This document shows positions 3,001 through 6,000 of a stretch of 40,547 bases of DNA, piece after piece. Each line of letters begins with the position of its first letter. The first letter of the stretch is position 1. Source of the stretch: a virus (lineage: Duplodnaviria > Heunggongvirae > Uroviricota > Caudoviricetes); IMG/VR virus record IMGVR_UViG_2617270967_000014; one strand, 5' to 3'. The position numbers were made by a program.

Positions 3001-6000
3001 TCTGCACGCTTTTCTTGGTATTGGTAAAATGTTTGCTCACTGGATCAAGGACAGGCTGGGTGAATATGGATTCGTTGAAAATCAAGATTTTGTGATTGCT
3101 TGCCAAAATTGGCAAGCAAAAGGTAGAGGCGGTCACAACCGCAAGGAATACCACCTCACCCTCGACACAGCCAAAGAGCTTGCGATGGTTGACGACTGCG
3201 TCCAATACTGACTATACTCCGCGCCGAGGCCTCGAAAACCTCCCAAAAGCGGATTAAACCAACCCCGTCAGTGTTGGATTTTTTATGCCTGTTATTCAGT
3301 GATAGCACAGTGTGCGGTCACATCCCCGATCAATGTCGGGAGGGCGACGAATACAACACCCGCAAGGGGAATAAGTCCGCGGTATCTTTTGGGCCGTTTC
3401 GAGCCTCCCGGCACCACATCTTGTGGTGGCATTTCTCGAAAAAAGCCAAAGGAGGTCATCATGACCACTCAACTCATCCCTGTGTTTGAAGGTACAATCT
3501 CAAATGAACCTACGCTTCTGGTGAACGCGCGTGATTTGCATGGATTTTTAGAGGTAGGTAAAGATTTTTCTAACTGGATACGGGCCAGGCTAAACGAGTA
3601 TGGATTCGTAGAAAATTTAGACTACATTCTATTTTCGCCAAATTTGGCGAAAACTCCAGGCCGCCGCCGCAAGGATTACCACCTCACCCTCGACACAGCC
3701 AAAGAGCTTGCGATGGTTGAACGTAACGAAAAAGGCCGCCAGATACGCCGCTACTTCATCGAGTGCGAAAAGAAACTTCGCAACATTCAGCCAGTACAAA
3801 CTGAGCAGCAATTCACAACCGAGGAAATCATCCTCCTCTGCTACATGCAACTCTGGATGGAAAAAGCACAACAACTCAGTAAGCAGCTATACCCCGTCAT
3901 GAGAGAACTGAATTCTGATTACTACGGGAAACTGTTTGATCTGGCCTACGAGACTCGTCATATAACCAACCGGACTCGCGACACATTGCTCCGCGAAGCA
4001 GCAAAACTTGATCCCGCCAACTATATGGTGCATAGGGCCAGAAGTATGCTGGCGCAACTAAGAGCAAGACAATTTGAATTCTGAAACCAAAGGAGCTTCG
4101 GCTCCTTTTTTCATGCCTGAAGGAAAGGAAAATGGCAGATATCATCGACAATGCCGCTGAAATCGAAGAATTGCAGCGCAATCTCTCCCTGCAAAAATAC
4201 AAATCCGATAGTAATGCCCCATCTGCTACTCATTGTTGCGAGTGTGGCGATCCGATAGATGAGCGGCGACGCCAGGCTGTTCGCGGATGCCGAACTTGCG
4301 CCAGTTGCCAGCAGGATATTGAACTTATCAACAAACAGAGAGGTGTGAAGTGAGCATAGACACCACTATAACGATCGATACGACCCTCAACACAGGTCTG
4401 GCGCTTCTTGGTTATTTTTACATTATGTTCTGCGCCGGGCGGTGGCTATCGCTGTTGTTACTGAAAAAATGGAATAAATGCCGTAAGCAGGATCAACGCC
4501 AGAAGGCAATGAATGCGTTTTCCGAAGCCTTCGGGATTGACAGCATGGAGCCAGGAGGTCCAGCTCACGTAATTAGCAGAGGTGACGTTGTAATTCTTGT
4601 ATACCGGAGCGAAGAGAAAAATGAGCGAGATTAACTATCAGGTACTGCGTGAAAAGGCAGAAAAAGCAACGCGTGGTGAGTGGTCGCTCGAATATGGAGA
4701 GAACCGATTTGATGGTGATGATGCACTAATTCATCGCGAGGCTGCTGGATATATTCCCATTTGCAGAATTGAAGGAGCACATCCTGAAAGCGGTTTCGAT
4801 GAAGATTTCCAAATGGAACAGCAGGCCAATGCTGAATTCATCGCCGCAGCCAATCCGGCTACCGTGCTGGCACTGCTGAATGAACGGGAAAGAAACCAGC
4901 AATACATCAAACGCCGCGACCAGGAGAACGAGGAAATTGCTCTTACGGTTGGGAAGCTGCGTGTTGAGCTTGAGGAAGTAAAACAACACGCTGAAGAATT
5001 ATCCGAAACCAAGGCTGTTCGTAACCAATGGCGGCCAGATATTTGCCCAATAACCGGACGTACATTTTTCATGTGGATTGAGCATCCAACATTGGGAAAT
5101 GTGCCGACATATGGTGGCCCATTAGATAGTTACACCATTCCAACAAAGGACGGTGACGGTGAGTTTTCATGTGAGCGTTACGATCATGATTTTGGCGGTT
5201 GGGTAGAAAGCGAATGTCTTGGGTTATATCTGATTGATGATAGAGAACAATGCAGGGTCTACGAACTGGAGGAACGCGTTAAAGAGCTGGAAACGCGGGA
5301 AGTTCATTTGCCGACTCGCTACGGCCTTCGATATGGACATCCGATAAATGATGATGAGCGCCACGTCATGATACCTAAAGAAAATGGCAGTTGGCTTTAC
5401 CTGATTGACCTAGAACACGCATTACGCGTCGCTGGCATTCGCATCAAAGGAGAGTGATATGGCATTAACACACCGCGAACTCTGTCAGATTGCGTACAAG
5501 TTCCTTAAGCGCAACGGGTTCAAGGTTTGTTTTCATGACCGCTTTATAGCTGTAACCAGTACCGGAGAACAGCCAGATGCTATGGGATTCAGAAATTCAG
5601 CATCATGCCTGATAGAGGCGAAGTGTTCTCGTGCTGACTTGTTAGCAGATAGAAAAAAGCGTTTTCGTAAAAATCCGTCTCTTGGAATGGGCGACTGGCG
5701 ATTCTTTATTAGTGAGCCGGGAATTATTTCAATTGAGGATTTACCACCTGGCTGGGGGTTACTTCACGTTGTTAACGGAAGAGTACGGAAAGTACATGGG
5801 TGGCCCAAGGGTAATTGCTGTTGGGGTAATCCTGACGATAAGCCATTTACTGGAAATAAGCAGGTTGAATGCGATTACATGTTATCTGCATTAAGGCGCA
5901 TGGAGTTGAGAGGGCACCTTAATGAAATATATGACGGTGTAATTGTTAATAAGAAAGAAGGAAACGCGGCATGATCACTATTACCAAAGAGCGACTACTG

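Follow-up and report, generated by a model that had tools for sequence, protein, structure and literature searches.

A DUF4752-family gene between traR and ea22 in a defective 933W-like prophage: probably an old alternative cassette exchanged by homologous recombination

Introduction

Does a small gene that separates traR from ea22 in one of two related blocks of the same prophage mark a precise insertion, or an older difference between the blocks? This question is raised by the DNA analyzed here (hereafter, the window), a stretch of 40,547 nt assigned to the Caudoviricetes (IMG/VR record IMGVR_UViG_2617270967_000014), which contains a single 933W-like lambdoid prophage, defective and integrated in ynfG. 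The initial annotation had proposed that a 94-aa membrane-protein gene was inserted as cargo exactly at the ea22 start of the left copy, re-creating a start codon. The genes orf60a-orf63-orf61-orf73-ea22 form a conserved block, 933W has two Orf73 genes, and orf73 and ea22 have been described as pro-lysogenic (PMC8614690), with Orf73 reprogramming the host RNA polymerase (PMC9239242).

Results

Two traR-ea22 blocks in one prophage

The left block, adjoining the attachment site, follows the truncated ynfG and antA genes and reads antA-traR-DUF4752-ea22, while the right block is a canonical exo-xis region (exo-orf60a-orf63-orf61-orf73-ea22) (Table 1). Paralogous blocks of this kind are known from 933W-like Stx-type phages, and the two copies correspond to them: the traR-ea22 block is duplicated as in 933W-like (Sepvirinae-type) phages, and the length difference of 271 corresponds to 370 - 99, the sizes in bp of the segments f and d in the GenBank entry of an Stx1-converting phage (NC_004913), where "arrangement cfe; region II" and "cde; region IV" are annotated. 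The region II and IV features of NC_004913 and NC_004914 reportedly go back to Sato et al., in the Journal of Bacteriology in 2003. As one contiguous stretch, the window was present in 0 of 5,426 complete E. coli genomes.

The product of the intact left traR matched PF01258 (E=1.2e-8; 35.3 bits, cutoff 24.9) and PHROG 54, and presented the DIIDNA motif (DxxDxA) and four cysteines arranged as CxxC...CxxC of TraR/DksA proteins, with a score slightly under the cutoff for TIGR02419 (55.2 vs. 59.7). It is 71% identical to the exo-xis TraR of the Stx1 phage, itself arranged like lambda orf73. On the right, a 5-nt deletion (GGCGAT^AGATGA), also identified in two IMG/VR contigs (L106 and L187), shifts traR into a TGA stop at about 37620, after approximately 41 codons, and the reading frame does not reach the second CxxC pair. 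Because of this frameshift, the overlap of the right TraR-like stop with the ea22 GTG, described in the initial annotation, exists in the ancestral frame and not in the present one. N-terminal PF13935 matches were obtained for both ea22 products (97.8 bits for the left and 142.4 bits for the right; cutoff 27), and the hairpin between antA and traR is identical in VT2-Sakai and 933W.

Table 1. Features of the left and right traR-ea22 blocks, in window positions.
Feature	Position	Strand	Basis
AntA/AntB-type antirepressor gene ahead of the left block	3461..4084	+	PF08346 and PF10548, RefSeq
Terminator-like hairpin between antA and traR (GGAGC-TTCG-GCTCC, then T6)	4089..4111	+	RNA fold, -11.5 kcal/mol, z=-2.6
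traR/lambda-orf73-like C4 zinc-finger gene, left att-proximal copy, intact, 73 aa	4132..4353	+	PF01258, PHROG 54
Exchangeable "f-type" patch (f-type traR 3' half, DUF4752, first ea22 codons), approximate	4254..4635	+	Boundaries inferred
DUF4752-family gene, 94 aa	4350..4634	+	GTG start, TAA at 4632-4634; Pfam, PHROG, RefSeq, dN/dS
271-nt segment of the left block only, not in the right block	4351..4621	.	Global alignment; equals f (370 bp) minus d (99 bp) of NC_004913
ead/Ea22-like gene, left copy, 278 aa, ATG start	4621..5457	+	PF13935, E=1.1e-27
Terminator-like hairpin 5' of the right traR	37421..37441	+	RNA fold, -8.6 kcal/mol, z=-3.1
traR/orf73, right canonical exo-xis copy, pseudogene	37497..37713	+	Sequence, alignment, comparison with lambda orf73
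ead/Ea22-like gene, right copy, 199 aa, GTG start	37710..38309	+	PF13935, E=1.8e-41

The 271-nt length difference

The left junction was compared with the right one by global alignment with cheap gap extension, in which the flanks aligned and the extra nucleotides of the left copy formed one single clean gap. The left ...AACAGAGAGGTGTGAAG (to 4350) paired with the right ...AACAGAGAGGTTCGAAG (to 37710), and after the gap pairing restarted at TGAGCGAGATTAACTATCAGG on the left and TGAGCGAAATTAATTATCAGG on the right. Since TGAGC is present at both ends, the placement of the gap is ambiguous by 5 nt. A plain MAFFT alignment of both regions, which misplaced or scattered the gap, was superseded by this procedure. 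The alignment confirms that the left copy contains an additional, self-contained gene, which occupies precisely the interval from the traR stop to the ea22 start, and in this copy ea22 does restart at an ATG of its own, at a distance of 271 bp and not the 270 bp previously given.

Identity and distribution of the additional gene

The additional ORF is a genuine, conserved accessory phage gene that has already been catalogued. It matched PF15944 (DUF4752) over positions 1-84 of 84 (130.5 bits; cutoff 27; E=2.4e-38) and PHROG 667 over profile positions 1-93 of 94 (E=1e-42), its ends are identical to those of the RefSeq CDS WP_032179796.1, and its length agrees with the approximately 80-105 residues of stand-alone DUF4752 proteins in temperate enterobacterial phages and prophages. 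It is under purifying selection, with dN/dS values of 0.04-0.38 among 15 alleles, well below 1 in every informative pair. Its GTG start and the traR stop (4351-4353) overlap in the tetranucleotide GTGA, and the ea22 ATG is embedded in the final 14 nt of the ORF. Against PADLOC profiles, 0 families were recovered at E<=0.1; likewise, NCBIfam, a PDB sequence-profile search, and Rfam returned no match for the ORF or the 271-nt segment, and a literature search for "DUF4752" found no paper naming the family.

Relatives were identified in 135 phage records. An exhaustive profile search of 1.84 billion representatives retrieved 61 small clusters, almost all of 50-110 aa, with no informative domain fusion, the only two long matches being marginal (E ~1e-4). 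Homologues with about 25% identity in other genera presented the same length and helix pattern. In phages of Escherichia, Salmonella, and Klebsiella, the gene belongs to the early operons of pL or pR; across phages, at least four different genes lie upstream of it and at least three downstream, and its 3' ATG and ribosome-binding stretch (GAAGAGAAAAATGA) also start another downstream gene in other phages. Among species-representative genomes, matches were restricted to three very short contigs (Xanthomonas, Trinickia, and an actinomycete MAG), which were set aside as probable contamination.

The DUF4752 product is probably a single-pass (bitopic) inner-membrane protein, with the N-terminus predicted outside and a basic C-terminal tail in the cytoplasm. 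A single hydrophobic stretch (approximately residues 12-38) is preceded by no K/R and followed by seven K/R in the next 15 residues, an asymmetry conserved in 22 homologues. Its best 19-residue Kyte-Doolittle mean (1.55) is borderline, being reached by 24% of the stop-free stretches of at least 80 aa within the window. The AlphaFold2 model, only moderately confident (mean pLDDT 72.8; pTM 0.36), is essentially one long helix (residues 2-61), with block-mean pLDDT values of 87-92 across residues 11-40. The designation as a membrane protein is consistent with the single stretch, the charge asymmetry, and the long helix, and the borderline hydropathy leaves it plausible, not proven.

No promoter-like or terminator-like site flanked 4350-4634 in a scan that gave background level; consequently, the upstream promoter and downstream terminator that define a moron were not identified for this ORF. 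In the integrated state, the left block is separated from pL, and it lies at the end of the prophage that follows the host ynfEF operon.

Two allele classes and patch exchange

Over its last 99 nt, traR occurs as two classes of allele, and in all of 149 junctions the class agreed with the gene that follows. The junctions, which were retrieved by DUF4752 similarity and junction pattern, are not an unbiased sample for allele association. DUF4752-linked junctions ended in GGTGTGAAGTGA (29/29), and ea22-linked junctions in GGTTCGAAGTGA (120/120). Identity was 74-83% between the classes and at least 93% within them.

Near-identical phage pairs differed by a patch of about 400 bp, comprising the traR 3' half, DUF4752, and the first ea22 codons. 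This was observed between VT2-Sakai and 933W, and between L029 and region IV of the Stx1 phage, with shared traR and ea22 sequence as bounds. On either side of this locus, VT2-Sakai and 933W are essentially identical (>800 bp upstream, >1300 bp downstream), and the only difference between them there is the patch, f or d; over 446 nt, that of 933W matches region IV of the Stx1-converting phage exactly. Furthermore, the f patch of L026 and L029 is set in an otherwise 99-100% exo-xis-type block. From VT2-Sakai vs. 933W, L029 vs. L003, and the allele classes, we inferred that the f-type patch of the window is limited by shared GAGTGTGGCGATCC (4240-4253) and TATCAGG... (4636 onward); it presented 88.6% identity with the Sakai patch. 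Since the patch is bounded by shared traR and ea22 sequence, homologous exchange rather than point insertion is indicated. The TGAGC repeat was also considered as a recombination site and discarded, since it is confined to one allele lineage (VT2-Sakai-type alleles begin with GTGAAC) and the true exchange boundaries are located further out. The traR-DUF4752-ea22 arrangement is old, as denoted by a dS of about 0.5 between alleles, as well as common and already annotated.

Discussion

From this comparative analysis, we consider it very likely that, in a 933W-like prophage with paralogous blocks, the DUF4752 gene belongs to an old pair of alleles, d and f, swapped by homologous recombination. Presence or absence of the gene would thus be an old two-allele polymorphism, in which the d allele (99 bp) leads from the traR 3' end straight into ea22, and the f allele (370 bp) comprises a diverged traR 3' end and DUF4752. 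Both alleles probably move between phages and from one paralogous block to the other through homologous recombination or gene conversion, the crossovers falling in the conserved traR and ea22 flanks; the original placement could have been a non-homologous join, kept by selection since it occurred at a gene boundary. The gene would be read within the operon, without a promoter or terminator of its own, and may be translationally coupled on both sides (to traR through the GTGA shared by stop and start, and to ea22 through the ATG within the last 14 nt of the gene). Its product might be synthesized early after infection or induction and act, as an N-out/C-in inner-membrane protein, on a host membrane-associated target.

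An alternative, which we judge unlikely, is that the three genes traR-DUF4752-ea22 were the ancestral state, and that a precise deletion from one (G/A)TGAGC start to the other brought traR into direct overlap with ea22. Slipped deletion would be favored by the short TGAGC direct repeats bordering the segment, and 933W seems to have lost the region II DUF4752 gene present in VT2-Sakai; however, this apparent loss reflects conversion, the incoming d-type patch being identical to that of region IV, and not a deletion between repeats. Moreover, DUF4752 is absent from lambda and from most lambdoid exo-xis blocks, and its occurrence in unrelated contexts (P22-like phages, HK106, and Klebsiella phages) points to a mobile module rather than to an original member of the block.

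With low probability, the DUF4752 product would be more than an indifferent passenger and, anchored in the membrane, would work as a partner of the pro-lysogenic Orf73(TraR)/Ea22 module. In that case, a host or phage factor could be tethered or sequestered at the inner membrane, in the lysis-lysogeny decision or in the induction of Stx prophages, and the strict linkage between DUF4752 and the traR 3' allele would reflect co-adaptation rather than history.

The precise cargo insertion of the initial annotation was only partly supported by our data, and its recent form, in which a gene entered the ea22 start codon of a right-like block with the start duplicated or re-created, is disfavored and very improbable. 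The extra 271 nt are bordered by TGAGC on both sides of a clean gap, and the adjacency of traR and ea22 is plausibly ancestral, because the direct junction occurs in lambda and in more than 120 IMG/VR contigs. Nevertheless, the filled and empty sites are not isogenic, since their traR 3' flanks share 74-83% identity and no filled site carried an empty-type flank, the repeat is lineage-specific, and what separates close pairs is a patch of about 400 bp and not a point insertion, while the same arrangement in alleles diverged at dS of about 0.5 denotes an old event. Re-creation of the start at the junction was not supported either, since the ea22 ATG and its ribosome-binding stretch (...GAAGAGAAAAATGA) belong to the 3' end of the DUF4752 module.

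Small membrane proteins from prophage accessory genes often act in exclusion. It could be argued from this, and from the position of the left block at the prophage end, separated from pL and downstream of ynfEF, that DUF4752 is a classical moron, an autonomous lysogenic-conversion cassette (e.g., for superinfection exclusion), active in the prophage from a promoter of its own and closed by its own terminator. We give this a very slight probability, since the scan revealed no promoter-like or terminator-like site around the ORF, its start and stop overlap the neighboring genes, a terminator-like hairpin lies just 5' of traR, PADLOC profiles gave no match, and the relatives are always found within early operons, in the direction of transcription. 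Finally, a mosaic junction could have produced the ORF as non-coding sequence, as its shortness, GTG start, and borderline hydropathy might suggest, but this is essentially refuted by full-length Pfam and PHROG matches, dN/dS far under 1 in all informative pairs, and homologues from other genera that, at as little as about 25% identity, retain length and helix pattern.

With homologous recombination swapping an old alternative cassette in and out, the finding is ordinary, and the gene, its family, and the exact arrangement were already known from Pfam, PHROG, RefSeq, and the GenBank feature tables of Stx phages. Beyond bookkeeping, its significance is small, since shuffling by gene conversion between paralogous blocks is standard lambdoid mosaicism. 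The lesson is one of method: what seemed, between copies within a genome, a precise insertion at a start codon was here an old allelic cassette. As DUF4752 is conserved and carried by many Shiga-toxin phages, a functional study is possibly worthwhile, although the window itself makes none newly testable.

Regarding known systems, the DUF4752 product, as an accessory product of a temperate phage that is small, dispensable, and putatively membrane-associated, may be likened to those of phage morons and to small early membrane proteins such as HK97 gp15, T4 Imm, and lambda CIII, from which it differs in having neither its own promoter and terminator nor sequence or profile similarity. Also comparable are other members of PF15944/PHROG 667 (ST64T orf-90, HK106 gp31, and VT2-Sakai H0158), of approximately 85-105 aa, which match the window ORF over the full length and share with it an N-terminal hydrophobic helix, a basic stretch, and a C-terminal hairpin, while being placed elsewhere in early operons, in the interval between replication genes and the nin region or near xis-int. 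In lambda, which has a single block without DUF4752, whereas the window has two and carries the gene in the left one, a 73-codon orf73 ends in a TGA overlapping the ea22 GTG (GTGAGCGA...), a junction reproduced by the right copy of the window. Among the closest systems are the Stx1-converting phage, Stx2 phage II, and VT2-Sakai (NC_004913, NC_004914). Unlike these carriers of regions II and IV, the prophage of the window is defective, is inserted in ynfG, and has a frameshifted exo-xis traR, and its f patch has diverged from the Stx-phage allele (88.6% identity; GTGAGC start instead of GTGAAC). Even so, as in the window, these phages carry antB-traR-DUF4752-ea22 on the att side and exo...orf61-traR-ea22 in the exo-xis region, and their regions II and IV present the same 271-bp length difference and junction sequences, with a DUF4752 82% identical to that of the window.

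Results

The two traR genes, one in the att-proximal antA-traR-DUF4752-ea22 block (left block) and one in the canonical exo-xis traR-ea22 block (right block), were aligned globally with cheap gap extension, since default MAFFT misplaced the gap. They align up to ...GAAG (4350 and 37710, respectively), followed by a single 271-nt gap at 4351-4621, and the alignment picks up again at TGAGCGA(G/A)ATTAA(C/T)TATCAGG; thus, the extra left-copy ORF described in the initial annotation between the traR stop and the ea22 start was confirmed. Its GTG start (4350) overlaps the traR TGA as GTGA, and the left ea22 ATG (4621) lies within its final 14 nt, so that ea22 does restart at its own ATG, although offset by 271 nt and not by 270. 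The overlap of the right traR stop with the ea22 GTG holds in the ancestral frame, but not in the actual one, which is shifted by a 5-nt deletion (GGCGAT^AGATGA vs. GGCGATCCGATAGATGA) that causes a premature stop after ~41 codons and abolishes translational coupling to ea22. Since the identical allele is present in two IMG/VR contigs (L106 and L187), this deletion is a true mutation and not a sequencing error.

Features of the two blocks and of the intervening prophage region
Feature	Position	Strand	Remark
ynfF	1-2397		window begins inside gene
ynfG stump, 84 nt	~2408-2491		placed by offset from RefSeq annotation of identical DNA
antA fragment, truncated	~2927-3193	+	ahead of full antA
sRNA-Xcc1 match	3335-3420	+	Rfam, 73.4 bits; shortly 5' of antA
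antA	3461-4084	+	left block
Terminator-like hairpin	4089-4111	+	-11.5 kcal/mol; left block, antA/traR interval
traR, left copy	4132-4353	+	
94-codon ORF (DUF4752)	4350-4634	+	
ea22, left copy	4621-5457	+	
lom-like and tail-fibre genes	7433-10484	-	933W-type left end joined to them
STnc100, two C4 antisense RNA / isrK / c4-a1b1 units, sok antitoxin RNA	16844-17049, 20191-20389, 21776-21974, 23838-24012	all -	Rfam, gathering-level
Hairpin, right block	37421-37441		5' of right traR
traR, right copy	37497-37713		frameshifted by 5-nt deletion
ea22, right copy	37710-38309		right block

Over its full length the ORF belongs to Pfam DUF4752 (130.5 bits; cutoff, 27) and to PHROG 667, a family of unknown function, and a RefSeq CDS with identical ends is labelled 'DUF4752 family protein'. 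Among 15 distinct alleles dN/dS was 0.04-0.38, denoting purifying selection on a real coding gene. An 801-nt query (window 4100-4900) was covered over at least 80% by 43 complete E. coli genomes, and in 40 records, O104:H4 outbreak strains among them, the best place was at least 99% identical. Most of this query was also found in five phage records at 98.6-99.4% identity (including Shigella phages POCJ13 and 75/02 Stx, and phiSTEC1589-Stx1c), and VT2-Sakai-type Stx phages matched at ~91% across traR, DUF4752, and the initial ea22 codons. Among 1.84 billion proteins, the family comprised only 61 small representative clusters and no informative domain fusions; PADLOC, NCBIfam, and PDB held no relatives of the ORF, no Rfam family matched the segment, and the literature search returned no paper mentioning DUF4752.

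The predicted product has one hydrophobic stretch (~residues 12-38); K/R are absent ahead of it and number seven in the following 15 residues, a pattern kept in 22 homologues. In the AlphaFold2 model (mean pLDDT 72.8) a single long helix spans residues 2-61, with block means of 87-92 across residues 11-40, and there is a weak C-terminal hairpin. The label of membrane protein is favored by this charge asymmetry and single helix, but hydropathy itself is borderline: the Kyte-Doolittle 19-residue maximum is 1.55, a value that 24% of the window's random stop-free stretches also reach. The most reasonable reading of these predictions is an N-out/C-in bitopic membrane protein.

Prophage DNA starts directly past the ynfG stump (~2491); ynfG is disrupted, and ~84 nt of it are left behind ynfF (window 2398-3460 region). 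The right block is preceded by recE, bet, and exo, and by orf60a, orf63, and orf61 homologues. The C4 antisense RNA / isrK / c4-a1b1 units form a duplicated P1/P7-type immunity element beside antirepressor genes. Window 1-25000 was contiguous in no complete E. coli genome of the collection; 10861-25000 matched one genome set (H113-H120) at 99.8-100%, and the best records extending to the ynfF end did so only piecewise (93-95% identity, 63-66% covered). The prophage looks like a hybrid.

At 149 traR 3' junctions gathered from IMG/VR, GenBank, and the window, two allele classes were found: all 29 DUF4752-linked junctions end in ...GGTGTGAAGTGA and all 120 ea22-linked ones in ...GGTTCGAAGTGA. Over the last 99 nt of traR, identity is at least 94.9% and 92.9% inside the two classes, respectively, and 74-83% across them. 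VT2-Sakai and 933W are essentially identical over antB, the hairpin, the initial ~150 nt of traR, and >1.3 kb downstream; their sole difference is a patch from just past GAGTGTGGCGATCC in traR to the initial ~25 nt of ea22, which in Sakai is of type f (370 bp; diverged traR 3' end plus DUF4752) and in 933W of type d (99 bp; traR 3' end straight into ea22). The 933W patch falls within 446 nt that are identical to region IV of the Stx1-converting phage. Conversely, IMG/VR contigs L026 and L029 carry an f patch with DUF4752 in an otherwise 99-100% exo-xis-type block. Together, the allele classes, the VT2-Sakai/933W pair, and these contigs show that the moving unit is the entire d or f patch. Homologous recombination or gene conversion exchanges it in both directions among paralogous and orthologous blocks, and the crossovers lie in the conserved flanks, traR ('e') on one side and ea22 ('c') on the other. 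The initial annotation had proposed a precise cargo insertion, which is partly supported: the gene does lie exactly between traR and ea22, but none of the 149 junctions is a filled site (with DUF4752) with empty-type flanks, and what is swapped is the whole patch. The TGAGC repeat was rejected as exchange boundary, being confined to one allele lineage, with Sakai-type alleles beginning GTGAAC.

In 27 IMG/VR loci (e.g., L098, L099, and L101) ea22 is cut after the fifth codon, between GTGAGCGAAATTAAC and TAGAAGCC...; as this mosaic junction lies 15 nt inside ea22, joins here are not always at gene boundaries. The two Ea22 proteins agree over the initial ~17 codons and, almost identically, over the last ~60, and also in a central coiled-coil stretch (4840-4985 vs. 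37926-38070, ~95%); their middles are unrelated, which indicates domain-level mosaicism. In 933W (AF125520, 59301-60418) the att-proximal block has no DUF4752, and the L0141 traR overlaps L0140 directly.

Discussion

DUF4752 is an ordinary shuffled accessory gene of early operons. In E. coli prophages it also lies behind a wHTH or DUF4406-like gene, and sometimes ahead of a different gene (MTITKQRVEK...) whose ATG has the same ...GAAGAGAAAAATGA context. Since this other downstream gene shares that context, the RBS stretch and ATG used by ea22 are part of the DUF4752 module, at its 3' end, and a re-created start, as had been supposed, is not supported. More distant relatives, at 24-50% identity, were found in 135 phage records. 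Three contexts were examined, and they differ: in ST64T (P22-like) and a Klebsiella phage the gene lies within the pR early operon, in the replication genes/nin region interval, and in HK106 within the pL early region close to xis-int. In each of the three, DUF4752 runs in the direction of its operon and either adjoins or overlaps the genes beside it, none of which is conserved across the contexts. A classical moron was rejected, as neither promoter nor terminator of its own was found for the ORF. DUF4752-like sequences on contigs labelled Xanthomonas pisi (L089, 484 nt) and Trinickia soli (L090, 384 nt), and on a contig of an actinomycete MAG (L091, 3,228 nt), most likely reflect contamination of those assemblies with enterobacterial or phage DNA.

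Adjacency of traR and ea22 is probably the ancestral state, given that it is shared by lambda and most exo-xis blocks and that DUF4752 occurs elsewhere. First placement may have been an illegitimate join, retained for lying at a gene boundary. The ORF would be transcribed from upstream: in replicating phage, N-antiterminated read-through from pL would cross int-attP-antB and the hairpin. The left block of an integrated prophage is probably silent. The ORF product, predicted to be membrane-anchored, could act early on a membrane-associated target. The strict linkage of DUF4752 to its own traR 3' allele might be functional and not historical; this possible basis, together with DUF4752 function, is the remaining novelty, and 933W with its DUF4752-carrying near-twin VT2-Sakai constitutes a natural knock-out pair for functional tests.

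The feature itself is common and not new, being represented in Pfam, PHROG, RefSeq, and GenBank features from 2003, and the two copies are not a duplication unique to the window. The lambda gene orf73 (73 codons), which is homologous to traR, overlaps the GTG start of ea22 at its stop, as GTGA. Its product has been characterised experimentally as a TraR-like regulator of host RNA polymerase (PMC9239242). The order orf60a-orf63-orf61-orf73-ea22 has been described as a conserved block, and two Orf73 genes, orf73 and L0141, are noted for 933W (PMC8614690). In the Stx1-converting phage NC_004913, the exo-xis region carries the GenBank feature 'arrangement c-d-e; region IV', and 'arrangement c-f-e; region II' lies across attP, after antB; there, d is 99 bp and f, the traR 3' end plus the DUF4752 gene, 370 bp. 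The difference, 271, is the exact gap length in the window. The window thus holds one 933W-like prophage, seen from its att-proximal end (left block) through to the exo-xis region (right block).
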